DNA of 62,692 nucleotides, counting the filler, from Collodictyon triciliatum (lineage: Eukaryota): NCBI GenBank assembly GCA_043381765.1. It is 6 parts of 6 records of this genome, joined end to end, with 100 filler letters (N's around TTAATTAATTAA, not from the genome) between each part and the next. Parts side by side here need not be neighbours in the genome. Positions count along the whole stretch, not along the records: positions 44,763 to 62,692 come from JBHJMP010000470.1; 5 more parts are not named here. One strand, written 5' to 3'. This document shows, piece after piece, positions 19,843 to 62,692 of this stretch (within the stretch, counting starts at the first letter, position 1; each line of letters begins with the position of its first letter). The notes below the pieces were generated by a model that had not been told where the DNA came from, ran no database searches, and worked only from the letters and a program-made list of their open reading frames with translations. Both the position numbers and the translations under genes were made by a program.

Positions 19843-22800
19843 CTACAGCTCGTCGTGCTCGTCTGAAAGCAACGGGAGGTTAGTGTTGCGACAGGGCTGC
19901 GGGTGAGAGGGGCCCGACCGCAATCGGCGGCAGTGGGGTGGCGGGTGTGGGGTTGGGCTTACAGTCGGACGAGGCAGAGTCCTTTGCTGGCGGCACAAAG
20001 TCGTCGTCGTCCTCCACCGTGGCGCTGGGGTCGATGTTGAGACTCATCTTGATGATGCGGTGGACGCGGCCGGCAAAGTTGGGCAGGTCGTCCACATTGA
20101 AGCCAGATTGCAGCAGCTAAGGCGGCAGTGTGCAAGTCAGTGTTTGTGCCCATCAGCAGCAGGTCCACACACGCACACATCACGCACACAACCGCACAAT
20201 ACACCGCCGCGTGGCGAGGCATGAGGCGGGGCGGCTACTCACGGCTGTCTCGTAGAGCAGGTTGGCGAGGTCCTTGTTGGATTCCTCCGACTGTCCGTCC
20301 TTGACGCGCTTGTTCAGCTCCTTCACAATCGGGTGCAGCGGGTTGATCTCGAGAATCTTCTTGGCGGACATCACCTTTCCACGGCTGGGGTCGGCCAGGG
20401 CCTGAGCCTTCATGATGCGCTCCATGTTGGCTGTCCATCCGTACTGGCTGGTCACAAGGACGGCAGGAGACTCGGCGATGCGGTTGGAGATTGTGACCTT
20501 CTCGACCTGCGCCACAGATGTGGATTTTGGCGACGGACGTAGGTGAGAAAAGAGGCTCTGGGGTAGAGTACACGAGCAAAGAGTTGTTGATTGAGTTACT
20601 GGCGCTCGCCTCACCTTGTCGCCAAGAAGGTCCTTCAAATAGTCGCGGACTGCTCCAAACTCCTCCTCGTAGTGCTTCTCCTTCTGCTTCTGGAACTCCT
20701 CATCTCCAAACTTCAGACCTGGCAACGCATTCACGGTTAGAGGTGGGATAAAGTCTTCATGTGGTTGGGCAGCAGTCCAGTCCTCCTCATCCCCTATTGT
20801 TGGAAGATTCTCTCACCTTCCTTGGCAACATTCATCAGCTTCTTGTCGTCAAACTCCTGCATGTGTTGCACCAGGTACTCATCGATCGGGTCCACCATGA
20901 AAATCACGTCGTATCCACGCTTGCGAAGCTTCTCCAAGAATGGTGAAGTCTGCACAGCCTCGACGCTCTCGCCGGAGATGAAATAGATGTACTTCTGGTC
21001 CTCCTTCATCCTGGGTGATTGTGTGGGTTAGGGTTAGGGGGTCAGCCGTATGACATCGCTATTGGGCAGAATGCGGCCCTGCCTTTAGCGCAATAGACAC
21101 ATCAAAATGGGCAGCATGTATGTATAAAAATTACTTGGAGACATATTCCTCAAGACCAACATATCGGCCGTCAGACTTTGATGTCTTGAATCTGGAATGA
21201 GACAGTGCATTAGCATGAACCGTTCATTTTATGGTGCAGAACCTGCTCAAAAAGCGAGGCGGTTTATGTACTGAGACACCTACCGAAGGAGCTTCGCAAG
21301 GCGCTGGCGGTTGCTGCTGTCATCGATAACACCGAGTTTCAAGCTGATGCCAAAGTTCTGAGGAGTTGAGTTAGAGTGAGCAACACACACCATAGCTGCG
21401 AAATTGTGAATTCTGGCAATTGAACGTGTCTTCCGTGTGTGCAGGTTGATGCAGAAGAGCAGTATCTAAAAGTTTTATAAGGTACCTCGATGAAGGTCTT
21501 GTACTTCTGGATGGGATCGACACCCTCATCTGCTGGGGTTTCCTCGTCGGCATACTCGGAGTCGTCTTCCTGGGCACCGGTGCCTTCCTTCTCCTTCAGG
21601 GCACGCTGTTCGTTCTTGGCCATGATTTGGACCTGGTATCCGAGGCAATCAGAAGTGAGACAAGAATGAAAAATTATCTTTCGAATGATATTTACAATGC
21701 CGTTTTAATTTCAAATTGCCTGACCATCTCGATGGCCTTGCGGATGAGCTTCTTGCGGATGACGCGGAGCAGTTTGTTCTCCTGTTATCGATGTGCACAA
21801 GTGCATGTTACGCCACTACTTCGGGGGTTAGGGTAGTAGAAAAATTGGGCGTGTGTGGCCTGAGGCGTACCTGAAGGGTCTCGCGAGAGATGTTGATGGG
21901 AAGGTCGTCTGAGTCGACAACACCCTTGATGAAGTTCAGGTAGCGAGGGAGCAGGTCTGTGAGTGACGGGGTTAGTGGGCTTCGGGTCGGTTTAGAACAG
22001 GTCGTGTGCATACTGCATCTGGCTCGCCCGATTGGGGCCAACGTAAGATAGGTAGACCATCACATCAAAAGGGAGGTTTCACCTTCAAAGGTATCGGAGA
22101 TGAAGACACGGCGGACATACAACTTGATGTTGTGCATCATCCCGCCCATGCTGTCGAACAGGTTGAGGGGCATGTGGTCAGGGATGAAGAGGAGGGACTT
22201 AAAGTCAACCTCGCCCTCGGCGTTGAAGTGGATAAAGGTCAGGGGATTCTCCGAGTCTTTAGAGATTGTCTGGTAGAATTTGCTGTGGAGAAATCATTCA
22301 GTCAATTTATCTAGTGGTGCTTTTAAAAAGAGACATGTGTGTGGGTGACCAAGATTGGAAAAGTGGAAAGTGAAAATAAATAGGAGGCGCTTACTTGTAC
22401 TCATCGCGTGTGATGTCGGCAGGCTTGCGGACCCAGATGGGCTTCACATCGTTGAGGAGAGTGGACTCGAGTTTCTTGAGGGGAGTGCTGTCCGAGCTGG
22501 CAGAATCAGACTTTTCTTCCTCTTCCTCCTCCTCCTCTTCTTCGGAATCATCAGAGTCGTCTACATTCTCGACCTCTTCTTCCTCCTTCTTGGGCTCATC
22601 TTTCTTCTCCTGGGTGCGCTCGACATCAAGGTAGATGGGGAATGTGATAAATTCAGCGTACTTGTGGACGATCTCCTTGAGTTTGTATTCTTCAAGATAC
22701 TCCTTGGCATCCTGTTCGTTGAAACAAGCATGAGACATTGGGGGTTTCTAAACCAGGCTGCGTTTGAACCACATGAATGTGCATCGGATAATTGTCTAAC

Positions 22801-23989: not shown

Positions 23990-25689
23990 TCAACGAGTCG
24001 CTAGATCGTGGCAGCACGCCATATATGCGCACCTAGGGGTAACATTCGCAAGTGTTCGATGCTGGTGGTATATACAGCGAATGGCCGCAACCAACCCCAA
24101 TCCGGAATTTGGGGAACATTCCGGAATCTTCCAGGAACAGGACTGCCATATCGAGGGGTTCTCTTCTGGAACAGGGTGGAGCGAGTCTCGGAAGATGCGA
24201 AGCCTGCTGTGTTTATGTTCCGTTGGGTTCGCGAGCGAGTCGGGTGGTGTTGTGGTGCGAACAGAACATGAGAACCTTTGGATACGAATAAGCCGTGAGC
24301 ACACCTCTGGCATTCCAATAGGGAATTTCCTTACTATCAACACGGAGTTTGTGCGATGAAAAATGGTTACGGATTTGCTACTCACGCTGGAAAAGCTGTA
24401 GAACGAATCGCTCAGGTGGGGAATGGTGGCCAGCTGAACCCACTCCGTGAGAAGGCGACGGTGGGTTTCTGGGGCCAAATCCAATTGACAGAATCCACGC
24501 AAGAAGCAAGCTTCCTCCAACTCGTGTTCGTTCAAGGTGTTAACCCCTTCACTCAAGATCATCTGCGGGTCTCGACATCAGAAAAAAAAAAGGGTTGTGC
24601 ATATGCAGGCGCCATATAAACAGGAACAACGAACACCCACAATTGCCATACCAAGGGTGCCAAAACAAGTGCAGTGAGATGCAAGGTAGTAACATAAAGA
24701 GATGCGAAACAACATATACCTTGTCATCCTTTCTGATAAATTGAATGGTTTCATCAAGACGGCTCTTTACGCTGTCTCGGTTGCCTCTCTTTGACACAGA
24801 GAAGAATTGGCAAAGTTTCTTTAGATTCTCGTTGCTGAGGTTTTGGAGAGAAAAATCATTATCAAAGAGCGGGGCGTACTCAACCAAGTCGAAAGGTTTC
24901 ACATCGTGGCTTCCCTCAATCTATTCATAGAAACGTCGTTCTCACTCTTACGTGCAGCTTTCAAAATAGTGCATGGGGACAAAGAAAGCAAATAAAAAAA
25001 AAATATTCAGGGTGCTTCCACACAGACAAATACACGCAATACACTTGCAAATAAAGTTGACATATCTTATTGAAGAGACGAACCTTTTCCATAAACTCAT
25101 AAAACTTTGTGTGCAGTGTAAGATGTGAAATGTGCATAGGATTTTTGCTCATGGTAGCGTTGACAGACTTCAAATAATCTTTCAGGTCTGTAGTGGCAAC
25201 GTCCTTCGACTTGTACATGACTGAAAAGATATCCCCCTGGAGGTCATTTTAGGCAAATAAGTGACGATCTGTTTTTCGATCAATCATGGCTGTTAAAGAA
25301 GAATGAAGAATTATCCGTGTATTTTTTTCTCAATGAGTCACGAATTTATTTATTTTTTTTGTATCTTTCGTACTTTTACTGATGGGTCGACGAATTGTGA
25401 AGGGAGCATGTGAGGGAATGTTTGTATGTAAATTGGAATCAAAAGCGGGGTGAATGGCAGGGCTATGATGACTAAGAAAGGGATGAATGATTTTGTATCC
25501 TTTAATTGGCGACGCAAAAAGGCCGTCTCGTGTCGGTTGAGTTCCTTTCCCTGGGAATGGTACGTGCATCAACAAGGACGAATGTAAAAGGAATCAAAAG
25601 TAAAGGCATGTAAACATACAACTGGGCAACGCTCTCTTGTAATTGACATTTGAACTGCTTGAAAAAATCCACAAAACGGTGCTTGACAA

Positions 25690-44762: not shown

Positions 44763-44822
44763 GAAATGATGAACGGATAGATCGTTTGCAGAATTATTTT
44801 ATTTCATATTTGTGTGTGTGTG

Positions 44823-44956
<134 letters not shown>

Positions 44957-45216
44957 TGTGCATAAAGACAGCGTAGCGGTTGAGGTCTACGATGGGTGAT
45001 GTGATACCTATGGCCACAGCACCCTTTCACAAAGGGCATTGAATAAGAAAACGAAAGGTTACATGGTTTTGCATCTCAAAGGAAAGAGAGGAAGAGAGTA
45101 GGGATATGAGAGGATGAGGTTCAGCTGTCTTATATTTCTTATTTTCCTTGCTCACTAGAGAGGCAAACACTCCTTGTGATTGATAACTGTATGTATTTGA
45201 ATGATTATCCAGGATA

Positions 45217-46708
45217 TTAATTGGTGGATTCGTATCTTCCTTCATCATCCGAGTCATCAGAGATGTGACCAAAAACCCCTTTCATCTTTCCCCAGGTATA
45301 TTTGAATCCATCCTACAATGTCCAAATGTTTAATCATAACATATTTCATAAAAGTTTTGTGGTTTCCAAATTCCTGCATATTTTGTCAGGAGGTTCAAGA
45401 TTGGGCAAACCTTCACGTATCCATAGGACCTAATCCAGAATTCAAGGTTGGGAAAGGCCTCTTTGCCTCTCAGCTTCCTCCTGGTCATGTTATACGTAAC
45501 TCCTCCGACGACGTAGATAGTGCTGACTCCAAAAAGTCTGCATAGACATGTGGAAATATGAATATGAGTGATTGTGCAAGGGCTAACGGGGCCTTTGGAA
45601 GGTGGGATGGATACTTCGTATGTGTAAAGGCAAACCCGATGAGGAAATAAAGGCCGACAGTAAAAATGCTTTCTTCCTCGGTGTCTAAGCCAACATATAC
45701 GCCACATGCAGTGGAAGAGTACATACCAGATGCTTTGTATATCGTGCCACTCATTGTCACCTTTTAGATTTGGAAATCCATCTTAACATAAAATCAAAAC
45801 TACTGGTAAAAAAAAAAATAACTAATTTAATGCGTATACATATAGAAAAAAAAAGGTATTCTGTCATGTCACAAACAGATATGGGCGTAGCTGGCTGTAG
45901 AGTGTTTCCGCATTTTATTTCGTAGTAAAAGCTCTTGTTGTTCCCACTGAACTTGATTACAATACCGTCATTTCCGTCGATACCTAAATGATATAATGTG
46001 AGCATCCTTTTTTTTTTCTTCAAAAAAAAAAAAAAAAAAAAGAGCCCGGGATCTTGCTGTAAAATCAAGACTTCTATTCAAATAATAGATTTCTCCATAT
46101 GATTATTTCCAATTCTAAACACTTGGACATATTAACACCTCACGGCACGGGCACGAATACGTGAATGTAATAAATTATTAAATACAACATCTGTATTGGT
46201 ACAATCAGTGTCTAATCAATAATCACCGTTCTTAAATTCGTACGATGGATACCCTGAGGACGAAACAATCCCAGTGCAGGAGTTGCCATCCACAACCTGT
46301 TCGTAAGACATGAAACCACTAGAGAACAGAAAATAAGTGAAATATGGAATGAGGAGGTCAGTCACAAGCGCAAATGATTTCAATCTGGATTTAAATAAAT
46401 ATGAAGACTTGCCTATCACCAGAGCAGGTCGGGGACACAGCATCGGTGCAAAAGTTCAGGTAGTATTGAAAGTATGGCGGCTCAGTTCCTATGTACGAAT
46501 CCCTGCGCAGAGTAATCATCATTCAGAATATAACAAAATTGCATGCAGTTCAAACAATGGTGTTTTTAACTAGTTACGACCGTGAAAAGATCACCATAAA
46601 TATATATATATAAATATTCGTATTTGTCTCACTTAATATACATGTGACAGGGTCATTTCGTTCTGTTTTGTTTTACTTTTATAATGATTGTAGACGTATA
46701 AGGAACCC

Positions 46709-46792
<84 letters not shown>

Positions 46793-47046
46793 GGTATATG
46801 CAAATGAGAAAAAAATTGATCTTTATTAGTTAGCTTATATGAAAGCGGAAAAAAGAAGATGGATTTAAATTAATAATATTAAGGATAATACGACATAAAT
46901 ACAGCGTATTACCCAACTTTCTTGAGGGGAGTAAAGTCGTATCTCCAGCCATTCGGGGCCTTCCACATGCACGGCTGTCCTCCCGCAGCCTCAGAGACGA
47001 GCGCAATAATGACCAAGCTGATCGCGGCCCACGTGTGAGGCTTCAT
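45217..47046 (-). CDS. Cation-dependent mannose-6-phosphate receptor / Atg27-like type I membrane protein
   Basis: Signal peptide, Cys-spaced MRH-like domain (YDFTPL, YYLNFC, YSSTAC), TM segment, YVVGGVTYN...RGKEAFPNLEFW, |DGFKY and an acidic tail ending RYESTN*. Confidence 0.8.
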
Positions 47047-47207
47047 CTTTGGTGTATTCCACACCGGAAAGCTGATTAGAAACGGGCGAGGAAAAGAGGC
47101 GATCTGACTGGCCCAACAGAAACGATTCTTGAAAGAGGACTTGTGAAAGAATATGCTTGTAGTTGAGAGCAGTCGATCATCCACCGGTGCTCTTTTTGAG
47201 TTTTTTA

Positions 47208-47313
<106 letters not shown>

Positions 47314-47804
47314 TACCATTATCATTATCATTATCATTCTTTCTCTCTATACATATTTTATGTTCTTTTCAAAAGGAGGGTGCTTCGCTTTTTGATCGGA
47401 GGACGGTATTCTCTTGCTCCTAACAAGCTGTGATCGGCCAGTGTATTAAATATATATATGTAATTCTCTCACTCGCAAGACTGGCGTTGGTGACATGTTG
47501 ATCGGTTCACATACGAAATCGGGTCACGACAGGCGTTTTGTGTTTCTTTGGATTAATGTTTAATTGGGAAGGAAATTACTTTGCTGAAGGACGAGATAAA
47601 CTGATAATTGGATGATTGGATGATTGGAAAATGAAGGAAGGAAGAATGAAAGAAAAGAAAAGAAAAGAAAAATTAAGCAAAGGCGAATTTAAACATACTT
47701 TTTCTAATTGGATCGCGGCATGTTTGTTTGTTCGACGGGTTTGCGAATGTCCATAATTGGGCGAAGATTCGTCCTGCTTGTTCGGGTATTAAATCGGCGG
47801 ATTG

Positions 47805-47961
47805 TTCACACATCTGGAAATTATAATATGCGGGCTCTGCCTTTCGTATTAAAAAAAGTTATCTTTCGTTACATCAACTGGCAAGAAAGAATATACAATC
47901 TTTCGAATGGTAAACCTGGAGCGCTAGTATCCAACATCTCACCACTTTTTTCACAAAGAGA
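47805..47961 (-). ncRNA. Putative Fanzor omegaRNA scaffold
   Basis: Lies immediately 3' of the Fanzor stop, forms hairpins, and its core is conserved in a second locus at 38300-38359. Confidence 0.6.
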
Positions 47962-49480
47962 TTATGTAGTAGTGAAGGCTGCCAGGGAAGACCCGACAGC
48001 CTGTTTTTTAAAGGAAGGTGTATGCATATTTTGAAGGACTAAAAGAACTTTCTTGAGTATATTTTTAGCGCTGTTAAAGTCCCTTGTGAAGAATACACTT
48101 TGTTTGCTTTCTGAGCGATTACATTCTTGGCATATGAGACATCTATAAACCTTTTTTGAATTTCCTTTCAGTTTCGTATATTCCAGTTCTTTTTCGCAGT
48201 TGCAGCACATCTTGGAGATTCAATATTCATCTACACTAGCTGTTTCAGAACGTTTGGATAATATTTTTCATAATCCTCTTCCGATTGTTGCCATAAAATG
48301 ATTCATCGGACATTTTCTGCTCCAGTCTCCATACGCCAGTACAACATCCTTGCCAAATGTCTTTTCCATTCGGTCCATAAACAACTGTTCACTTCTTTTT
48401 GTATTAACATACTGTCTCCATCTCATCTTTCGAAAAGTTACTTGTTCATAAAATCTAGAAAATTCTATCTGGTATCTTGATTTCAAAGATACGTATTTTC
48501 GAAAATTTATCATAATCGACCGAGCACGAGTTATGTTTACTCAGGTCTATCTCTAAATCGATTAAAGATACTATTGATGTCTCAAACCGCTGATTCTCTT
48601 CAAATGCCATGTGACCAAAAGAAACAGCATTTAGTAAATCTGTCACCATGCATATCCGAAAAGGATTGTACTTTTCTTTCTCGCGCAAGAGTATTTTGTG
48701 ATTTTCAAGAGATTTTCTATCATGTCTTGTTTGGTGTGCCGTATAAAGTAATTTCTTAACTTTCTCATCCACCATGTCAACCAAATTAAACTTGCCCGCA
48801 TCCACTCCAACTACTTTTTTTCCCGCTAATAAATATAACTGCTCTTCGGAAAGTTCATCTATATAAACATATTCTCGGTGTTTTTTTTTATTATATTTGG
48901 ATGTTGAATTTGAAATACCTATCTTTTTAAATAACAATGACACCGCCAAGCCGTCTGTTTGTATCATGTATTTAAAATTGTAGTCTCTTTGATGAAATAC
49001 CCTCTTCATTTCAGAGAAATTATCCCATAGTGTCTCTTTGCATCCTGATATATTCTTCATTGATGATGTTTTCCCAGTTAATAATAGTAGATCTACCAAA
49101 GATGCAGTATCTAGATTAATATAACATGATATTGTTAGTTCTTATAGAGATTGGTTGAAACTGATTGGCTCCAATTTCCCCAAAAATGCGATTCATGTGA
49201 ACTAGACATGGAATGCACTTATTTGGATTGACTTTGACATCTCATTCGATATCTTTTACAATATCGCTGGGAATGATAAGATTCCAATGCATCGTAGCCC
49301 ATTCTTTATATTGTTCCAGTATTTCGAGATTCTTGAAGATGGCTCCTTTTTTTTAACTCTGCTTTGAATCGAATAAAGGAAAAAAAAAGTTTTATAACTC
49401 TGCCTTTTTAATAGCTTCCGTAATATTCTCATCTTTAGGAGCTGCTTGATTATTAAAGACTGGACAATACCCTGTAAACA
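47962..49480 (-). pseudogene. Fanzor nuclease pseudogene (RuvC plus zinc finger)
   Basis: DVKVNP, QFQPI, YINLDTASLVDL, IQTDGLAVSLLF, RuvC-I VVGVDAG, FRKMRWRQY, VVLAYGDWS, VDEY*ISKMCCNC, CQEC, RuvC-III RDFNSAKNI. In-frame TGA at 48268-48270 and 48220-48222; frameshifts near 48505 and 49130. Confidence 0.9.
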
Positions 49481-49758
49481 TGAGTCTTCTTTGTATGTTT
49501 CCACTCTACAGTCGCAAATGGTTGTGGCATCATCCAAATACCCTCGAAGTCATTTTGAAGGAGGCAAAGAAACTTAAAACCGAAAATCAAATAAACAAAA
49601 ATAAACAAAAATAAACAAAAATAAACAAACAGAAAAGAAATTCATATTCAAACTCATTTTATTAACGATAATGCAGCAAGCCAACGTCCGCGTCTATGTG
49701 GAGGCACTTAGATAGCAGCAAGATAGCAAGGGGGAAAAAATGGTAGAAAATGAGAGAA

Positions 49759-52700
49759 CTATCCCTGAAAGCCGGGTCCCTTATAGACCGGATTGATTTC
49801 AAATCTGAATTCGATGGATGAAAAAGAGACAATAACGCCGTCGTACACAGGGGCACACCCATCTCGCACAAGGACGCCGTCCACCTTTGTAGGGTTTTTG
49901 CCATATGTAGTAATCGTGAAGTTTTTTTTGACTTGGTCAAACTCAAGTGTAGCCTGCTTTCTGGAAACCATGCGGGCACGCTTTGCACTGGCCAAATCAA
50001 GGTCATCGGAGCTGAGACACGTTCCGCGGCCGATGGTGACAACATCCCTTTTCATATACAAATCGCAGCATTCATCCGCTACAATTTTGTTTCACATTAT
50101 TTTTGTTAAAATTTTTTGTTGAATTAACCACTCGAGCAGGCGAAATTCTACTTTCACGAGTTGGAGAAGAAATGCAGCTATATCAAGTTTCTTGTAATTC
50201 CTCTCATCAACATTTTTGGTATATGCCATTCACAACACACATCTTTAAAGATACTGAGGGAAATAAGAGGAGGGTGGGGGGATATGGCTATACTTTACAG
50301 CTAAAAAGCAGTACTCACATTTAGAAAGATATTACATAATACGAAAAGAAAAGCACAAATGAAGGCACCATTTGCATGATTATACAAACCATTCAAAGAG
50401 CGTAGAACTGCATAATAGTGGATTGGCGGCAAACTCTTTGGAATCGAACCATGAGCAGGAGGCGGCGGAGTTGATGTTTTTCCTGCGCTTGAGGCGTGGG
50501 TAGCGTCAGGCACAACTGGATGTGTCGGTGAGGGATTTAAGGCATCGGGAGCAGATGTCTGAGACTCTTGCATCGCAGGCGCATCCGTTCTAACTGGGAG
50601 TTCCAAAGTTGTATCTAAATGACCATAATCAATATAAAACAACAACGACTTTCGTTTCATCCATATCGTACAGCGTATATTTTGGTACGTTTAGCCATTC
50701 CTGTGAAAACAAGCTACACATATGAGGTCTTTACCAAGAGCACTCGTGTTACAGGCCCCTGTAGCAGGCTCGTCAGGTTCTAGTTATGGATGGAAAGGTG
50801 AATATAAACATTATCGCCGGTGCTGCGTATATAAAATAATGAAAATAATCTGGGTCAATTTCTTGACTAAATCAAAGGTATTTATTGAAGCTTGTTGAGA
50901 AACAAAAAGATTAGAAAAAAGAAGAAAAAACTCACATATCTGATACACAGATTACGGTTGCGCATTTTCGATGATTGTGAAACAAAAAGAATCTAAAGAA
51001 AAAACGAACCTTGTGGATGAGCTTCAGACACGGACACAGAGACTGAGACTGAGACTGAGGCATAAGACTTGGCCAGGTCATTCAGCACATTGTTTGCACT
51101 ATTATCATCGGCTAAGACGATGCTACCCTGGATGGGTAAAATCGTAGCATCTGCAATTGTATTCGCAGGTGGAGAGAAAACAGACGTGTTTGCCGGATCT
51201 ACCATAGAATTAGTCAAAGACACAGGGTGTTCCACAGGGGCTGGTTTTGTACTCAGCTTTGGAGACAGTTCCAGATTGCCGACTGATTTTATGGAGGCAT
51301 GTCCGCTGTCTTCTGATTCGGGTCTCGCGCGCTTCCTGGAGCCTGGAAGCGGTAAATATGACGGCAAAGTTATAGGGGTTTGATGCATTACTGTAGGGAA
51401 TAGGGCCTGTGGTGCTTGTGGTGTTGAGACAACAAGGGACATAGGAGGAGACATCTTCGGTCCTGGTGCTTGGACCGAGGGTTGTGTCTGCAGTGATGCG
51501 GACGACGGTGTGGGAGATGCAGGCTGATGGGACGGGCGGGTCTGCAAACTGCCCTGAAGGGCTGTGTTTGAATGGAGAACATGAATAGAATCCACGCTGA
51601 CGAGAGTGTCTGTTGTGTGTAAAGGCTGCATTGGTGCGGCTGCAGGCACGTCAAGCGCCATTGAACTGGCCTTTTCTGAATCCGGGATATTGATGTTTAG
51701 TGACGGGGCTGCCATGAGAGATCATTATAATGGTAAGGGATGTTTGTGATATTGTGTATTGCGGAAGTCTAGCAATACCCTGTTGGGTGCCATGCTGCAT
51801 TCCTTGGGTGGATGTAGACAACTGTGGAGACATTTGGGGATGTGGTAGTGCGGTGTGCATTGGAGATGGGATTCTTCTCTGCGCAAATGGACTGTCCAAC
51901 GGTGCTGCAGATAAGTGCGATGGTCTCTGCGTCTGTGCAAAGACAGTCGGGATTGGCTCATGGAAGTGAGATGACATATCCTGTAATCATGCATGAATGC
52001 AGAATGGTGATCAACTTTGGTATTAGTATAATGGAGAAAGCTAAAGAGAAAAAATGACCGTAAAAATATATAGAAAGGAAAGAAATGAGACCCAAATGTA
52101 TAGTGCTATCATCAATTTCTCAGCAGAAGAGTGATAAAAAAAAAGTGTAGTGTGGGAATAATTGTTTTTGTTTAAAAAAAGAACTTGTGATTAATGCAGT
52201 ATACTTACAACTGATTTTACATTCGTTTTTTTTTTTTTTTGGAAAGAATAAAAGGAAGACGGCCCCAAGGTCGTCAAAAGGGCAGAATAAATATGATTTA
52301 GTGCATCAAAAATTATATAGAAACAAAACACGAATAGCTGTAGATGAGAGTAGTATGGTTACATAAGAAATAGAAGAAATTTCACGTGTAGTTTGGGCAA
52401 CATTAGGGGGGTGAATTTCTGGTATTGTGTTCGTAGCTGGGCTCGATATTTGATTCAGTGCATTTGTATGCATTGATATATTCACAGGCATGGTTTGCGG
52501 TGGTGGAGTCGGGACAGGGGTTGTAGTAAGCGTTGGAGTTAGGTTTGGGGTTGGCGTCGGAGTTGGGGATGTTGATAACTGACGGGCTACACGAAAATTA
52601 ACTAAATCATAGTCATTCATAATCATGGTCGTAATCTTAATGGTTTTCAAATCGGATCGTATAAGTATTGTGATATACAGTAAAGTCCTTGAAGAAAATT

Positions 52701-53696
52701 TTCAATATCGAGAGAAATAGTTATATGTGAAAAAAAACCCTTCTTTGACGTTTTCGTCCGCTTATTGAAACTGATATTAAGAGGAGCCTGATTGGAATCT
52801 GATAGACAGGTCAGTGGAATGCTCATATATGTGCTTAGATTTAAATCAATTATGCAGTTATATCTAGCATGGGCTATATGCATTCCAAAAATACAGCATT
52901 TGAATCATATTTTATGCACCCGGCGCTCTTGTCTGGATATCTTCTACCATGGGAGACTTCAGATGTTTCGAGTTTGACTGGTCACGGTCCAGTAAATCGG
53001 TGTGTGTGACATTATGAAAGCCTGGTCCAACAAGAAACGGAAATCCAGTAGGTGGAATAGGAGGGACATGTAATTTTCTACATGTAAATTCTCAATGTAA
53101 GTAAAATTAAGATCGGCATTTTGATATTTGAGAGAGAAATTATCAAATCATATGGCGTAAGAAGAAATTATCAAATCTTATGGAGTAAGAAGAAATATCA
53201 AGGAAATTGGGGAAAAAGAAGAAAAGGAGAAAATAAAGAATGTTGAGAGAGAAGGGAAAGGTACGCACCCATTTTCGAATTCGGGTGGTAACGCTGTGCG
53301 AGTTTCTATGCAATAATTGTATTAGATATGTGTCAGCATAAAATAGACGGTATAAAAAAAAAAGAGAGAGAGAGAGATAATTATATCCATTAATATAGGT
53401 TCATAAATACCCAAATCACCTCCTCCTTGAAAAACAGGCAAGGCACTTGAGTGCTCGTAATTTGTCGAGGAAGGCTTTTACGTTAATTGGTTAGATTGTC
53501 ATTCATAAACGGGATAATGAATGAAGATTGTGAATGAATACAAGTAGCACATATTAGAATTTATTGTGGTGTCCAAGTAAAAGACCTAGGTAAAGCTACT
53601 TACATTGCGCTGATTGCTCTTGGCTAGGCCAGGTTCCCTACTAGCAAATCCTGACACTGCACCATCAGATTGCGCACGCACGTCGGCAAATTTTGC
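49759..53696 (-). CDS. Pro/Ser/Thr-rich protein with C-terminal FHA domain (MCRS1/FOXK-like); 5' end unresolved
   Basis: Last exon LYMKRDVVTIGR...VSRKQA...GKNPTKVDG carries the FHA GR, SR and N motifs. A chain of low-complexity exons with compatible phases extends upstream to about 53696. Confidence 0.75.
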
Positions 53697-53807
53697 TTGA
53701 GTGGACGTTTCACATGAGTTTAATAATATGATGAAACACATACAAGTAATATAACCCCAATATATGACCTTGTTATTTTGAGCAAGTCGACCGCTCACAT
53801 TTTTTCG

Positions 53808-53852
<45 letters not shown>

Positions 53853-53927
53853 NNNNNNNNNNNNNNNNNNNNNNNNNNNNNNNNNNNNNNNNNNNNNNNN
53901 NNNNNNNNNNNNNNNNNNNNNNNNNNN

Positions 53928-53975
<48 letters not shown>

Positions 53976-54034
53976 TCGGATAATAGAATATGTATGATAG
54001 TGAAATATTTCTTGGAATATGGGACCGAACATAC

Positions 54035-54363
54035 CTATATCAACCAGCCATAAAGAAGGAGGGCCTGACTGGCCTTCACCACCAAAGACATATGATTGAT
54101 TTTTCCATGACACAAATGCACCGCCTTCGTAGGATGGTTTTGCTGGGGCGCTATCCGGTATGGACGATATCTTTGACCAGTCAAACGTCCCAGATTCATT
54201 GGATGCACTCAACATCCACGCATCACGCATCCCATAATTGCCATCACAACTCACTCCCCCGTACATAGCAAGTGTACCTTCCAGTGCCATGATGGATGAT
54301 GAACCTCTAGATGCTCTTCTATTCCAATTGTCTCCTATCTTCCATTCAAATGCACCTAATAAC

Positions 54364-54418
<55 letters not shown>

Positions 54419-57400
54419 CATTAGTAACATGCCTGTTCCTTACGTTGGATTGACCACGACAAAAAAAGGACCAGACATAATGCCCAGAAAAATGACGATT
54501 TATGGATTAGGCGTACATTCAAAATATTATTGCTTTCCATACTTTTGTCGAATACCCATATGTCATCTAGGGTACATCCTGATGAAGAAGATCCACTAAA
54601 TATAACAAGGCTATTGGAAATAGCACCTGCCACACTTCCATACTTGGGTGGTAGATATATGACGCCCTCAATGTCAGAATCAACTTTTATTGAACTTACA
54701 ACCTTACAGATATCTAAGTAGTTATTTTGCCCAAAATTATCAGATTATTAATTTTACTTCACAACAAACCAAAGTGTTCAAATTTCAAACAGTACCTAAG
54801 TCTATGAGAAGGATATCGTTCAAAACTGTCGGACCCGAAATACCGCCGTGTGCAATGAGAATATTCCCATTCAAGGTGAATGCACTCATCTGTCTGCTCA
54901 AGGTAAGAGTATACTGATTGAGGGACTGGAAACAACTACTCTTTGTGACACCTCCTTTGTGCTCCCAAGAACCATCCCCTAGAATTGTTTCAAGGATGTA
55001 ATAGATTGAGGAATAAATACATAAATGTATGGTCTCATGTTCAAATAAGACGATTGAGATGGAATTTCTGCTATTAAATGAGATACATTCACATTTTTTT
55101 TTACCAAAATCAAATGTCCAAACACTGCTACTTTCTACTTTCCCATCAAAGCCCCCATATATATACCAATAGTTATTGTAAATGACATGAGCTCCGTAGG
55201 ATAGTGGTGGTGCAGTGGAAGAGATACGAGACCAACTATCTTTTTCTAATAATGCAAAAGATTCTATTGAAACTTTCGAGATAACAGTTACTTTTCAAGT
55301 CATAATCAAATTGTTTGATAAGGAAAAGAGAGGTAGAAATGAACAAAACCTGGAATATACACCCACAGCTCTCTGTTAACTCCGCCAAGTTTCTAAAGAA
55401 TTCATCATGATTGCCATGAAAGAACTGCTGAGAGTGCACATTATATAAGTATTCGCAATATCGGTAGTTTACTCACGGATATGCCTCCAAAGACAAACAT
55501 CCTGGATGATTGGGTGACTGAATGACACCCGGCAAAGTGCACAGGAGACAAAGAGTGACGGACCCAAAGCTTCTTTTTAAATGATATTGAATAAAGATAT
55601 GCATCCGAATCGGATGCAGAGACTCCTCCGTTAACATATGCTTCATCTCCTATCATAGATATACATGATCCATATCGCCCGTGAGGAATTTGACCATGAA
55701 TAGCTGTTTGGTTCCATCGTTGTGCATCTATAAATAAAATTATATTAAAAACGGAGTTATTTATGGGGATGCATGTATTTAAAATCGTGAGAGCAAGCGC
55801 ATCAAGTTTAACTCCTCTCATCTGACAAAGAATAGAATAGAATAGAATAGAATAATAAACAAAAGTTGAATTGGTATGGGACGTTATTTTCTCTATCTTC
55901 CAAGAATGGTGATAATCGATGATAACAAACGCTCATCAGATGTAGAAAAAATCCAAGTCATGTTATAGAATGTCGGGTTGTTGGACTCAGGATTCGAGAT
56001 GCCTCCCAATATATGAAATACGTCATCATAGGAGAAAGATAGTCCAAGATGCATCGGAGGAGGTCGAGACACAGCCAGAATGTGACTTGTTGAAGATGAC
56101 TGAACTTCGGCTATAAATATTGAATGCACAATATATCAACCGTGTAACATTCTCTGGTCTATTTCTGGTCGTATCATACCAAAATAAAATGATATAGGTA
56201 TTGACGGATGTATATAATCGATGCTACCCCTATCCTTTGTAGCTCCATGAATATGGTTATATCGGGTTGAATGGTAAGATAAAATGAGGAAAAGAAAATA
56301 CCAGTATATTTTCCTCATATACTTACAAAAAAAGTCCTTCGATATGGCAGTGCTTTCGTGGCAGTCTCTCTACCAATAGCAACAAAACAAAACAAAACAA
56401 AACAAAACAAAACAAAACAAAACAAAACAAAACAAAACAAAACAAAACAAAACAAAACAAAACAAAACAAAACAAAACAAATTATATTGAAAAAATGTTC
56501 ACATTAGAGGGTATATTACATCTTAAAATTTCTAGAAATGAGCTGTTTCTCTCTCTCCATCTCTCGATTTCGTTACCGTATCACAGGGGAGGCACTCTCC
56601 AACGAAATTAACGAATCTTCCTGTGGGACATACGCATCCGTTTGCCCAAATAAATCCATAAGAGCAGTCTAGAACCGAACATCAATATTTATCCATCAGA
56701 ATGCTTCATTCTTCTATAATTATAAGCTAACTGTCGGCTTTCTCTTTCTCCTCAAAAATAATTACAAGATGATGTTGTCGTGTCTCAAAAAAAATAGAAT
56801 ATCTGACCATGAAAATCGATGTTGAATCCACCATCAGTGCCACGGTGAGAAGGAACGATGAGACGAATCATAACTGTGGCTCCATAGTAAGAAAAGAATC
56901 GTCCTTGATCTTCTCGTTGAATACTCACCTTGACAAATTTAAGTGTTCATATAACATGAATACAAAAGGGATCCTGCTTATTTTAAAAATGCTCAGAGGA
57001 GTATAATTATAAGGGGTTTGGTGGAGTCGTGATGATTACAGTTTGCTTTGGTTCATCTTGGAATGAATTATAACGAGTCATTTTGCATTTCTCCACAACA
57101 TTGATAATAAGCTGACTGTCTGGACTAATATCTACAAAACTAAACTGCAGGATGGAGAGCTCATAAGTAAAAAGAAAGAATGAAAAAAAAACATCTAGAA
57201 TGAATTTTATTTTTATTTTCATCGAGAGGTCAATTTTTTTGAAGACGTATCGAAAGGAAAGATTTAACCTCAAGTAAGTTTGCATTTCTAACAACCCATG
57301 TGCAGTCTGTCTCTGGTAAAACATACAGTTCCTCACTCCCATCATCGAGTCTGACAATTGTGTTTGCATCGATGTAGGTTTTTTTGCGGCAAAAAGCTAA

Positions 57401-60400
57401 GCCAAACCGAACGATGATAAGCCCGGTAGCATATATTGAGTAAATTGTTGATTTTTCGGAGATAAATAATAGTAAATAAATAAATGAAAACGGAAAAATT
57501 CAAACATAACAAAAAGAAACGAAACATGCCCAAAATTCAAACAAACATATGAATTATCAAATGAAAACTAACCAAGAGTCTTTATAAAGGCAGCAGGGAG
57601 TGTAGAAGTGTATCTTGTCAGAGAGTTATATCCTGCGAAATAGATCCACTTATTTCCGATCGAAACGGATGAATATAGAGACTGACCAGGGAGTATGATA
57701 TCTTTCGGAAGCTGCCGGCAATATCGACTGGCTTTAATCGATATATTTTGATAAAAAATATTGTTAATGAAATCTTTTCTTAGGCCCCTGTTTACTTTCT
57801 TTTCAATTGGCTTGAATATGAAAGTAGAAGTGAATAGGAATGCGTACCAAAGTCAAAGACATAAAATCCGATTGAGGCAAATCTCGCAGTGTAAATAAAG
57901 AGGTAGGAGCGAAATACGGATAAAGCTTCTGGAATGCGGGGGCATTGACTTGTGTCGTCATCATATCTTACCCATTCTAAATCTAATTTGTATGTAAATG
58001 TAAATGAAAAGCAAAATTGGCACACTCGTGAAAAAAAGTATCGTTTCTTCCTTGCTTCAAAATAAAAAAAAATTACATACGCTCTTTGTAGCACCAAATA
58101 TCTTTCGTATTAACTCCGTATGATACCCCGCCATAAAGGCATAGACGGTTATCATAGGAAAACAAAGCAGCAGCTTCTCTTGGGCTAGGTTCCACTCCTG
58201 CAGTTTTATAGACCACCCAAGAAGAATTCTGGAACATATACACAAATACGGGTGTATTTTCATTTTGATAGTATCCATATTCAATCGTCCATTTTTTGTT
58301 CCATAGGTACATTTTGTCATCGACAACTAGTGAATTTTTTGACTGGATGGATGTCGGGAGCGTGAACCCTGGATACGGAGTCGCCACGCGTGGTCTCCAA
58401 ATTTTCAGGGCTTTAGAAAAAAATGGTAGTTAATATAATTTTTTGGAAAAAATGGAAAGGAAAAAATGGAAAGGAAAAGGGAAAGGAAAAGGAAAAGGAA
58501 AAGGAAAAGGAAAAGGAAAAGGAAAAGGAAAAGGAAAAGGAAAAGGAAAAGGAAAAGGAAAAGAAAAANNNNNNNNNNNNNNNNNNNNNNNNNNNNNNNN
58601 NNNNNNNNNNNNNNNNNNNNNNNNNNNNNNNNNNNNNNNNNNNNNNNNNNNNNNNNNNNNNNNNNNNNAAAAGGAAAAGGAAAAGGAAAAGGAAAAGGAA
58701 AAGGAAAAGGAAAAGGAAAAGGAAAAGGAAAAGGAAAAGGAAAAGGAAAAGGAAAAGGAAAAGGAAAAGGAAAAGGAAAAGGAAAAGGAAAAGGAAAAGA
58801 AAAGGAAAAGGAAAAAGAAAAGAGAAAGAAAAAGAAAAGTGCATCAAATCTTCTTTCATTTATTCGTAGGACAAAATGATGAACATATATCTTACTCAGA
58901 TCGAAAATGTAGGTGAAATAGGATTTTCGACTATTCATATCATTTCCTCCAATTATATAAATTGCACCACTATATACGGCCAAAGCCTATTTTTTTTTAA
59001 AAAAATAAACTAGTAAAATTCGCAGGAAACCAAAATTAAATTTCAGGAAATGGCGAATAATATTTTGAAAGGGAACATCAAAAAAAATTATTTATTTAAA
59101 TTAAAGCCGAAGGAGGGTCCTTGAAAAAAAAAAAGGTACTAGTGTCCCAGCAGATAAACTTACAGGTCGCAAGATAATAGGAGGAGAGTTCATGTTCACT
59201 CTGTTCACACCAAAAGACATCGGATATAGAAGAACCCATTTCTTCGTCGCTAGGTATATGTTACGACAATAAGGATAACAATAAACTGTTGAAATGAAAC
59301 CAGAAAAAGCGACAATAAGAATAAGGAAAGGGACATGGATACGGATACGGATACAGATACGGATACAGATACGGATAAGGACGAATAGTTTAATTCTGAT
59401 AAAAACGTGAATATGAAGAGGTAAATGAGATGATTCTTTACCAACATCCAAGGACCATAAATCGTTGATGAATCCTAAATATCCGTAGCATGAGGTTCCA
59501 CCAAAAACGTAAACTTTACCATCTTGAACTGCTTTCGGGGAGTTCAATCGTGTCGGAGGAAAAATAGATGAAGAAGACTCCCATAAAAATGAGGCTATTA
59601 AAATAATCCATGAATATTGTATTATCTAATACAAAAGTATGTGTAGGGAGGAATATTAACGAGTTGAACGAACATTTAACCCTTCATGTTCAAATTGAAT
59701 AGAAAAAGAGAAGAAAAATAGACGAAAGGCGCATACTCAAATTTAATTTCCAAATAGTGGAATCAACGCATCCAGTGTATCCATTGGTCACCCACAAGAA
59801 ATTGTTTAGAATATTTAGACTGGGCATACGCTTTCCGTTGGGAGCAGAGATAGGAAGTACTTGATTTACAACTTTCGAGTAGTCGACATAATAAACTGTC
59901 TGCAATTTTTCTATGTTGATATTATGTGTTGGTTATGAAATTAGTTGATTTTTTTGGTGTTATTATCTATTATTGCCATATATCAGGTCTTACATAAGAG
60001 TATGTGTATTGGCTAATAAAAATATGAATAAGATGTAGCATGAAACTGTCTGCAGCTACCTATGTCAATAACAAGTATATCCGAGGTAGGTTGGAATGAT
60101 CCGAATGAAACTGGGGTTCCGGAAAATATATACCAATTTACTCCATTGAGAATATTTCCTCCATATGCTTTTGAAGGGGGTGTCCCATATGCTTGCGATG
60201 TTAAGAACGATAACTGGGTCCAACCAGATGATGCTTTGTAGCAGAGATTTGATTTAGGGTATACTTCATTTCAGGTAATGGCTATCAGTAATGCAATAAA
60301 AGGGAGAGAGAAAAAACGAAAATTCGGTTCAATCAAAAGGCTTCGGGGTAAAAGATATGCCTATATTTATGGGCATTGTGATTTATACAAATAATAAGAT

Positions 60401-61385
60401 TTTCCTATAATTTCAAAGAACAACGTACTTAGATTGAATCTCCATACTTCACTAAAGCACCTAAAACTACATCCCCCATAGTAATATAAGCAATTTTGAT
60501 ATATTGCTCGTTGTCCTCCCGATGCAGAAGGGACACGAATTGATTTTGGAAGCTGAGCCCAGCTGGTTTTCTCTTATTGCATGATGTATTTAAACCGGTA
60601 TTTAGATGTCAAATAATTTTGAATAAATACAAACAAATGAAAACAAAAGCCATGTTCTCAATTTCACTGATATCACTCAAAAAAATATTTAAATATACCA
60701 AGATCAAATCTCCAAACATCACCACTTGAGGTATCATCGACAAAATCATGCGCAAATATTGTATTATTCCATGAAAACATGAAAGAAAATAGTTCTATTT
60801 GTGGCTTAGGCGAATTAAGACTCATTTTGGTCCAAATACGATTGTTCATATCCAGGAAATAAACAAGGCGATCAACTAAGGGAGACATGTAATAAATCTA
60901 AAGATGTCAATATTAGTCTTAGATCCTCAACTATATGTACATTAAAAAAATGTATAGACAAATAAAATGTGCTTGTGAGGTGAGATATGTCATGAAAATA
61001 AAATGGTGTATTTTTAATAAATACTCTGTTTTCCAGAAGAACTGCTGAAAACATGTTTGATAACGCAGGAGTATCACCAAAGAGTTTGACCACAGACCAT
61101 CCATAATTACCTAAATATAAGGCAACCCCGATTTTTTTCAGATTTAGGACAATATTATATAAGAAAGATTAATCATACATACATACATACATACATACAT
61201 ACATACATACATACATACATACATACATACATACATACATACATACATACATACATACATACATACANNNNNNNNNNNNNNNNNNNNNNNNNNNNNNNNN
61301 NNNNNNNNNNNNNNNNNNNNNNNNNNNNNNNNNNNNNNNNNNNNNNNNNNNNNNNNNNNNNNNNNNNCATACATACATACATACA

Positions 61386-61417
<32 letters not shown>

Positions 61418-62247
61418 GACAAGACAAGACAAGACAAGACAAGACAAGACAAGACAAGACAAGACAAGACAAGACAAGACAAGTCAGGTCAGGTCAGGTC
61501 AGGTCAGGTCATCCACAATAAGATTATATGTTGATTTCGTACTTTGATCGTGGAGGACATGGAAATAGTTTATGTAGAGCTGCCCATCTAGCAAATAAGC
61601 AGATCCTCTACAAATGCAAAAGTAGGTAGGTATATAAAATTCAATTTTTTGGGTGAACGGATCAAGTAGTGCATAGACGGAGTTGAAAATTACATGAAAG
61701 AGCATCATGATCATAATGCATTAGAAATAAAGTAATATAATAATTCAAAGGAAACGAAGTTCGTAAAATATGAACGAACGAGTCTGGGAGCATGTACAGA
61801 GAGTAATTCCACATGAATGTTTTTCCGTATGGATAGTTAGGGATGACATCTGGTATCATTTCCCATTGGTCTCCAAGAGAAAGCTGAGCTGTTTTATATG
61901 CATAATCAATGCAAGTAAAAATGATTGCTTTTTTTATACCATATGAAAAATATAACATATCGTAAATATATTGGGCGCGTGCCCTGTACCAAGAAAAAAT
62001 GGTACATGGCATTATTTATCATTTTATTATTAAAAGGTTGGGATTGGTGACAGGGAGAAACAAGAACACTTTTTGACATGTATATAGTAACACGCACAAA
62101 TGACACATGGAAACTCATCCATGAAAGTAGCATTAGATCTATGTACTATCTATAATGGGGATGTGTAGTGGCTACATTACCTCGGACTTCTGTTGCAACA
62201 AGAACGAGCAAAACCAAAGTCAAACACGAAAGTAATTCTTTCGGCAT
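54035..62247 (-). CDS. Signal-peptide Kelch-repeat / CUB / Cys-rich / Kelch-repeat protein (attractin/MEGF8-like ectodomain); 3' end unresolved at N gap
   Basis: Exon 1 MPKELLSCLTLVLLVLVATEVR. Many YVFGG/IYGG...W kelch blades, CUB-like DDGSEELY...DCTWVV...GGFNIDF, and Cys-rich CVCPTG...CLPCD. Confidence 0.8.
58470..58800. repeat. (GGAAAA)n intronic microsatellite with gap
   Basis: Visible tandem repeat. Confidence 0.9.
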
Positions 62248-62692
62248 TTGAACTCAAACCGAGAACCGAAAGAACTTGCCGTATATCCTCTTCCTTCTTT
62301 TGGTTTCCTGGGTGCGAAGAACGATAAATGAAAGTCACCCTTCCTTCTCTTCTGAGTCGACGCTGCAAAAGTTTGATCCCTGCTATGTGCCCTCTCGACA
62401 AAGTCCTATATCACCAGGTTGGTTAATAAATAAAAAGTAAAATGAATACTTGAGTCGAGCGAAGACTTCGCAGTATCAGGGTCAAAGGAATAGGGAATAA
62501 TTTTAGAAATAAGATAAAATTAAAGGAGACAAATAGAATCGTATGTTCCTGTGATCATACGAAAAAAAAACTGTTTCTATTATATTATTATTATTATTAT
62601 TATGATTATGATTATGATTATGATTATGATTATGATTATGATTATGATTATGATTATGATTATGATTATGATTATGATTATGATTATGATTA

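Follow-up and report, generated by a model that had tools for sequence, protein, structure and literature searches.

Fanzor1 is a eukaryotic, transposon-borne relative of TnpB and Cas12. Intact Fanzor1 is an RNA-guided DNA cutter represented by solved and assayed proteins (PMC10432273, PMC10530073), and Fanzor1 genes, together with partial copies, are known in fungi, protists, arthropods, plants and giant viruses (PMC10432273, PMC3627910). For giant viruses, a Tc/mariner-type arrangement carrying Fanzor1 has already been described by Bao and Jurka (PMC3627910). Here we analyse 62,692 nucleotides of Collodictyon triciliatum DNA (assembly GCA_043381765.1; six parts joined by filler, hereafter the window), in which positions 44,763 to 62,692 derive from record JBHJMP010000470.1. 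We conclude, with a probability of about 0.93, that the minus-strand stretch 49458-47962 derives from a Fanzor1 gene and represents a dead copy of it, truncated at 5'.

In tblastn searches of the window with two relatives, P0003 and P0159, the Fanzor1-derived homology extends over about 499 codons in three reading frames (A, B and C; Table 1), in line with the protein of roughly 500 amino acids (aa) proposed by an earlier, sequence-only reading. P0159, a 648-aa protein from an environmental assembly, is the closest intact relative (50-62% identical), and frame A shows 50% identity to its residues 180-253. The 228-aa open reading frame (ORF) connects via a +1 shift at about 48505 to the frame of the 90-aa and 85-aa ORFs, which are themselves a single frame broken by two TGA codons. 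All of the motifs picked out by the sequence-only reading (GVDAG, AYGDWS, the zinc finger and RDxNSAxNI) are present on the minus strand at their proposed places, the second CxxC of the zinc finger reading CLIC/CQEC, and the three catalytic residues are still encoded. Its joining of three ORFs across two TGA codons and frameshifts is confirmed, but the damage is larger and includes a third TGA, a 42-nucleotide (nt) insertion with two TAA codons and the loss of the 5' end. When contigs of public sequencing runs are mapped on the window, repeat-family depth is limited to about 47.9-49.5 kb.

Identification of the remnant rests mainly on its C-terminal part. The 192-residue product of frame C, with TGA entered as X, was compared by phmmer with 1,835,955,588 representative proteins and gave 1470 matches at E<=1e-3, 391 of them at <=1e-10 and 12 at <=1e-30, the best being 3.3e-46; the remnant is therefore far beyond chance. 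Full-length matches are about 620-680 aa long, and the piece aligns at their residues ~440-610. A sequence search of the PDB returned the Fanzor1 of Parasitella (2.8e-7), the Fanzor of Spizellomyces (9.3e-7) and the Fanzor1 of Guillardia (1.1e-3), which are three of the four rows at E<=10 and the sole significant ones; the fourth is a chance row (E 5.5). P0003, a relative of 634 aa, can be aligned from one end to the other with SpuFz1 of Spizellomyces punctatus (E 9.2e-37). An AlphaFold2 model of the same 192 residues, built from 62 aligned sequences, reached a predicted local distance difference test score (pLDDT) of 83.5, and a Foldseek search of the PDB with it gave seven matches at E<=0.001, every one a Fanzor1 structure, with Cas12, TnpB and Fanzor2 entries only from E>=6.5e-3 on. 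Comparison with the Fanzor/TnpB fold had been set beforehand as the test that could overturn the identification, and the modelled piece matches the Fanzor1 fold. Within the 62-sequence alignment there is no variation at Gly71 or Glu105 of the piece, and hardly any at the four Cys or at the R-D of RuvC-III. The Fanzor identity first proposed is thus borne out by both the PDB sequence matches and the fold matches, which support descent of the stretch from a Fanzor gene, specifically Fanzor1.

Features that define the group point the same way. In Fanzors the RuvC-II Glu is replaced by Gly or Pro and compensated by a conserved Glu further downstream (PMC10530073). The Gly of AYGDWS (residue 71), which we equate with the canonical RuvC-II Glu by motif position, occupies that place in the window, and Glu105 follows 34 residues on, just before the zinc finger. 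The sequence-only reading had treated such a Glu as a Fanzor hallmark; it is present, but a subset of TnpBs has the same relocated Glu (PMC10530073, PMC10711439), so that it marks a wider clade and not Fanzors alone. The T-D-G motif characteristic of the Fanzor1 WED domain (PMC10711439) is found in frame B, where Q-T-D-G-L-A-V aligns to the Q/E-T-D-G of relatives. The motif of Bao and Jurka, D-X(125,275)-[TS]-[TS]-X-X-[C4 zinc finger]-X(5,50)-RD (PMC3627910), is likewise recognizable: 194 codons separate the Asp from the T-S position, four Cys follow, and R-D lies 12 residues past the last of them. Its sole departure is that the conserved T-S pair opens with Ile, encoded by the codon after the third TGA, where relatives have Thr. 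All three codons of the Asp...Glu...Asp triad of the TnpB-type RuvC nuclease fold are kept, and by Foldseek Fanzor1 is closer than Fanzor2 (9B0L, E 3.2e-2 over 77 columns) or TnpB (8H1J, E 0.18). The remnant also resides in eukaryotic DNA, as the window holds exon-like gene fragments separated by non-coding DNA. An intact member would bind an omega-RNA that the 3' end of the element carrying it gives rise to, and would cut guide-matching DNA with a single RuvC site (Asp, relocated Glu, Asp) beside the zinc finger; by analogy with the assayed proteins we infer that intact family members would carry out RNA-guided double-strand cleavage.

The window copy has no uninterrupted full-length reading frame, being truncated at 49458 and broken by three TGA codons, two TAA codons and two frameshifts; it cannot make a Fanzor1 protein. 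For both C-terminal TGA codons, the simplest origin would be a C-to-T change of CGA. CpG decay was considered as the source of these changes and rejected, the observed/expected CpG ratio being 0.79 in the remnant vs 0.94 across the window; because this depletion is mild and gives no clear signal, no particular mutational process is shown. The 33-residue stretch after RuvC-I was examined as a possible intron; the intact P0159 carries it without a gap, and it is therefore a subfamily trait, neither intron nor decay. That the gene might still function, with TGA read as sense or with the breaks being sequencing errors or introns, has next to no credibility. Its three catalytic residues and zinc finger are retained, and one frameshift lies in a T run and is absent from other copies; yet about 156 N-terminal codons are gone where other copies continue, two TAA codons lie in the 42-nt insertion, and the second frameshift leaves no spare sequence for an intron. 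A sense reading of TGA is ruled out by the Arg, Arg and Tyr that relatives carry at the three positions, along with the frameshifts and TAA stops, and the standard code leaves host ORFs of 522-968 codons uninterrupted. We know of no genetic code in which TGA stands for Arg. A copy without function is thus the best-supported reading. We propose that it came in as a single insertion from a multi-copy Fanzor1 family, and that it afterwards lost its ~156 N-terminal codons and acquired premature stops, the two frameshifts and the small insertion.

Contigs of four public runs (X1, X2, X4 and X8) mapped on 47400-49800 reveal other members of this family. In X4 and X8, respectively, 279 and 323 contigs match only about 47.9-49.5 kb and are 80 to over 99% alike to the stretch (identity classes >=99, 95-99, 90-95 and <90%: 57, 27, 89 and 106 contigs in X4; 61, 54, 102 and 106 in X8), and X4 depth over the window flanks is none or next to none; a subsurface metagenome, X2, adds 54 contigs, and X1 three. 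Because hundreds of contigs match the stretch only, the family is multi-copy, and it is of mixed age. Other copies (three records in X4, one in X2) extend past 49458 with one shared sequence, which, read by eye on the minus strand, encodes K-E-H-F-V-K-R-L-L, corresponding to P0159 residues 147-155; the truncation therefore belongs to the window copy, not to the family. One letter at 48505 is absent from other copies (48.4 of 150.2 depth in X4, one contig; 55.2 of 67.6 in X8, two contigs), and joints in other copies bypass about 49345-49394, the region of the 42-nt insertion. In the protein collection there are two decayed short relatives from NCBI records (P0013, 78% identity; P0037, 74%), as well as the fragments P0157 and P0158 at 69-70%. 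Past mobility is supported by this repeat-family behaviour, and the proposal that a Fanzor family was once active finds support in the contigs matching the stretch alone, some of which are without lesions that the window copy has. No sequencing run contained at least half of the stretch's words (best share 0.12), and no RNA run was listed among the holders; that X4 and X8 are RNA runs is our guess.

Relatives also occur in giant viruses and metagenomes. The nearest named Atlas clusters of P0159 are 92-100% Nucleocytoviricota. When alignment A2 was used for scanning, relatives were confirmed in 358 of 377 candidate stretches among viral contigs and in at least 450 of 599 among metagenome contigs; a scan of the metagenome contigs with P0159 alone, where that with A2 succeeded, had 184 pattern matches and none confirmed. 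One metagenome relative, P0004 (378 aa, 47% to the window piece), carries the source label '6-pyruvoyl-tetrahydropterin synthase' and looks mis-annotated. The closest loci among the matches listed (L001, L002, L082 and L083; 44-47% identity to P0159) have in common a unit of ~3.3 kb with 74-96% DNA identity and different flanks in different giant-virus contigs; the unit was therefore recently mobile among these viruses. It is bounded by 33-nt terminal inverted repeats (TIRs) and encodes a 343-aa helix-turn-helix plus DDE_3 transposase on the strand opposite to the Fanzor1 gene. The Fanzor1 product is 634 aa long, and its reading frame stops 47-48 nt before the right end.

Such kinship raises the question of whether the window copy belongs to a giant-virus segment that became integrated, and not to a transposon insertion in host DNA. 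We judge this very improbable. The viral composition of the clusters nearest to P0159 and the high proportion of candidate stretches in the viral collection that encode a relative speak for it; the copy, however, lies ~300 nt downstream of an FHA exon and amid exon-like pieces of ordinary cellular genes, and hundreds of diverged family contigs occur in two runs whereas the flanks do not, which is the pattern of an interspersed repeat. Nor was a viral hallmark gene noticed in the window, in which no systematic screen for such genes was made. A broader proposal would be that the family of the copy is still living and possibly transcribed, with several hundred pieces in two organisms, that the mariner-borne Fanzor1 family of giant viruses is its sister group, and that it has been exchanged between virus and host. 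This is doubtful as it stands; if it were true and intact copies exist, these would be a new and natively eukaryotic source of compact nucleases guided by RNA, and would document a transposon bridge between virus and host.

Several observations weigh against an account in terms of a Fanzor1 gene brought in by a mobile element. No credible TIR or target-site duplication (TSD) was found in 45500-52000, only microsatellite and A/T-rich pairs, and no transposase remnant in the window (nothing below E 0.79 with the transposase of the viral relatives as query). Searches of two fragments against Pfam and NCBIfam gave only sub-threshold matches (Cas12f1-like_TNB, 13.9 bits with a cut-off of 26.3; guided_TnpB, 16.4 with a cut-off of 100), and the N-terminal 228-aa piece, compared with the PDB by sequence, gave chance rows only (E 0.32 and 2.7). 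The frameshift at 48505 falls within a homopolymer; it could have arisen in the assembly, but even then the gene would not be rescued. At RuvC-I, where a D-P-G fingerprint has been described (PMC10711439), the window reads D-A-G, vs D-P-G in all close relatives inspected (P0003, P0159, P0004, P0008, P0014, P0015 and P0160) and in the 62-sequence consensus; because this is a single substitution in an otherwise decayed copy, it bears on function, not on descent. Finally, with filters off, a covariance model of the viral guide-RNA module described below recovered no omega-RNA-like module in 45000-52000 (17 rows at E<=10, none significant). The sequence-only reading had spoken of a Fanzor element; the gene remnant stands, but because ends, TSD, transposase and omega-RNA-like module were not found, the element is deduced from relatives only. 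One of its ends is lost by definition, since the copy is truncated at 5'.

The guide-RNA module itself was sought among the viral relatives. Tails 3' of the gene were obtained from 150 of 160 fetched loci; 120 were unique, or 114 after re-anchoring on the right end, and 103 were aligned once a filter had removed ten with aberrant ends and one had been removed by hand. The alignment contains a conserved module of ~140 nt that overlaps the ORF end and takes in the right TIR. Run on the raw MAFFT alignment, RNAalifold gave one helix; the other helices were set by eye and then counted. For the resulting five helices (25 pairs), 94.6% of cells pair vs 83.9% in shuffled and 40-57% in slid alignments, 16 of the 25 pairs have changes on both sides, and none of 500 shuffles reaches any of these measures. 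TIRs form part of Fanzor1 guide-RNA scaffolds (PMC10711439), and the module, as its covariation suggests, probably serves the viral family as omega-RNA scaffold. Past its stop, the window copy still resembles the C-terminal tail of its giant-virus relatives (47961-47929, minus strand; a tblastn segment of P0003 crosses the stop), and these 33 positions are a candidate for the start of a decayed 3' guide-RNA region, possible at most.

This raises the alternative that the locus is a 'ghost', its 3' end yielding an omega-RNA used in trans by an intact Fanzor1 elsewhere, with the flank as guide. SpuFz1 ghost loci that have an omega-RNA without a protein have been described (PMC10432273), the 3' coding end and the similarity past the stop are kept here, and the giant-virus elements end in ~140 nt with a covarying structure that overlaps the ORF end. 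The covariance model, however, which comes from the viral family and not from the window's own, misses the copy, scoring 5.1 bits (E 7.5) at the expected place, 47849-47980 on the minus strand, while its best rows (E 0.19-0.54) fall in low-complexity DNA elsewhere; the copy's right end could not be defined, and Rfam gave no match in the whole window. We regard a ghost locus as improbable, and a dead gene copy remains our reading.

The remnant is intergenic and shares its strand with an FHA-domain exon that lies about 300 nt upstream. X8 contig depth over the FHA gene ends near 49.64 kb, shortly after an AATAAA, a hint of the transcript end of that gene, and the Fanzor remnant probably lies just beyond the gene's 3' end. 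Exon-like ORFs of cellular genes elsewhere show the window to be cellular, intron-bearing eukaryotic DNA. The GC content is very uneven (0.16-0.69 in 1.5-kb windows) and simple repeats are abundant (27 rows at a Tandem Repeats Finder score >=150); a tRNA scan of the window found one tRNA-Leu, far from the remnant. The thioredoxin reductase ORF has a GC content of 0.66-0.69 in a window of 0.39 and ends in G-C-G-G-G-K-C-G, the redox centre that Plasmodium thioredoxin reductase has at its C-terminus (PMC6272602), which hints at either an alveolate-type host or a transferred gene. In the available portions of the literature on Fanzor in Apicomplexa and alveolates, no such family is described.

Table 1. 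Features of the Fanzor1 remnant, its surroundings and the viral relatives (window positions unless a locus is named)
Feature	Position	Strand	Remarks
Whole Fanzor1 pseudogene remnant	47962..49458	-	~ residues 157-642 of intact 648-aa P0159 (tblastn)
ORF 1	48455-49141	-	228 aa
ORF 2	48268-48540	-	90 aa
ORF 3	47962-48219	-	85 aa
Frame A: remnant of N-terminal half	49128..49458	-	P0159 ~157-253; starts abruptly at 5' truncation point 49458
Frame B: Q-T-D-G, RuvC-I GVDAG, 33-residue subfamily insertion	48503..49132	-	tblastn and translation
33-residue insertion after RuvC-I	about 48665-48565	-	gapless vs P0159, 33-residue gap vs P0003
Frame C: two long helices, AYGDWS, alternative Glu, C4 zinc finger, RuvC-III, TAA stop	47962..48510	-	translation, alignment, model
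RuvC-I Asp codon in GVDAG	48802-48800	-	translation
Alternative Glu codon in VDEY-TGA-ISKMCCNC	48228-48226	-	translation
RuvC-III Asp codon in TRDFNSAKNI	48081-48079	-	translation
Frame C stop TAA	47964-47962	-	translation
5' truncation, first ~156 codons of gene absent	at 49458	-	homology starts at ~ P0159 residue 157
42-nt in-frame insertion with two TAA, copy-specific	49394-49353	-	flanked by 9-nt direct repeat 49403-49395 / 49362-49354
In-frame TGA no. 1	49242..49244	-	opposite Tyr of relatives
Frameshift 1, frame A to frame B	49125..49132 (about 49128)	-	two tblastn segments abut
Frameshift 2, frame B to frame C	48503..48510 (about 48505)	-	+1, one surplus T in T run
In-frame TGA no. 2	48268..48270	-	Arg in 6/7 relatives; seventh (P0037) out of frame there
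In-frame TGA no. 3	48220..48222	-	Arg in 6/6 covering relatives
FHA-domain exon, upstream, same strand	49759-50091	-	stop TAG 49761-49759
AATAAA	49663-49658	-	after FHA exon
10-nt tandem repeat	49589-49638		after AATAAA
(TTA)n microsatellites, long	46712-46790; 47205-47338		downstream of remnant
Kelch-repeat exon-like ORFs	53586-59625	-	
Hsp90 exon-like ORF	20180-20812	-	
LETM1-like exon-like ORF	23990-24577	-	
Protein-kinase exon-like ORF	35660-36436	-	
Choline-transporter-like exon-like ORF	2400-2867	+	
Thioredoxin/glutathione reductase, high-molecular-weight, uninterrupted 522-codon ORF	28491-30059	+	TIGR01438, 641 bits
Tc1/mariner-type transposon with Fanzor1	L002:2616-5949		also L001, L082, L083
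Examples of the 3' module	L002:5807-5948; L013:2394-2535		among L001-L160

Peptides specific to this family, taken from the window and the viral relatives, have no occurrence in the supplementary tables of PMC10432273, PMC10530073 and PMC3627910, in so far as these are available to us; the only match in them is the generic A-Y-G-D-W-S-R motif, in oomycete Fanzor1. As far as its peptides indicate, the subfamily may therefore be uncatalogued. A dead copy adds one more locus to a widespread family and matters little by itself: the remnant is real, correctly recognised and an ordinary genomic fossil, of low interest unless intact copies are found. It does show that a prolific Fanzor1 family was present in this organism or in close kin, and it serves as a pointer in two directions, to giant-virus mariner-type elements as the nearest relatives of the family and to the intact 648-aa member in an environmental assembly.

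Among described systems, SpuFz1 (SPu-1) of S. punctatus (PMC3627910, PMC10432273; PDB 8GKH and 9CEU-9CEZ) belongs to the same protein family and has the same fold, with fold matches to the window piece at 4.4e-5 to 1.1e-4 in addition to the sequence match given above; its length is similar (about 633-648 aa), and SPu-1 is likewise a multi-copy family of full-length and partial copies (PMC3627910, PMC10432273). It differs in that identity to the window piece in the fold alignment is about 20%, in that the window's subfamily has the 33-residue insertion after RuvC-I, and in that the window copy is truncated, broken and without recognisable inverted repeats or omega-RNA. The giant-virus Tc/mariner Fanzor1 elements of the PGv-1 type (PMC3627910) show the same arrangement as L001, L002, L082 and L083, likened by architecture; the window, in contrast, is without a transposase remnant or matching TIR and is cellular, intron-bearing DNA. 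TnpB (IS200/IS605 and IS607, e.g. ISDra2 TnpB) and Cas12f have a RuvC fold with an inserted zinc finger as well, visible here as weak fold matches (E 0.18 for 8H1J; 9e-3 to 0.2 for Cas12f) and the sub-threshold family matches. Both fall far below Fanzor1 in every search; they are prokaryotic, about 400 aa long and have the canonical Glu in RuvC-II where the window has Gly. Fanzor2 (ApmFz2, PDB 9B0L) has the relocated Glu in common with the window piece (PMC10530073), but its fold match is limited to the 77 columns mentioned, and it is shorter and associated with IS607, whereas the window carries the T-D-G characteristic of Fanzor1 (PMC10711439).

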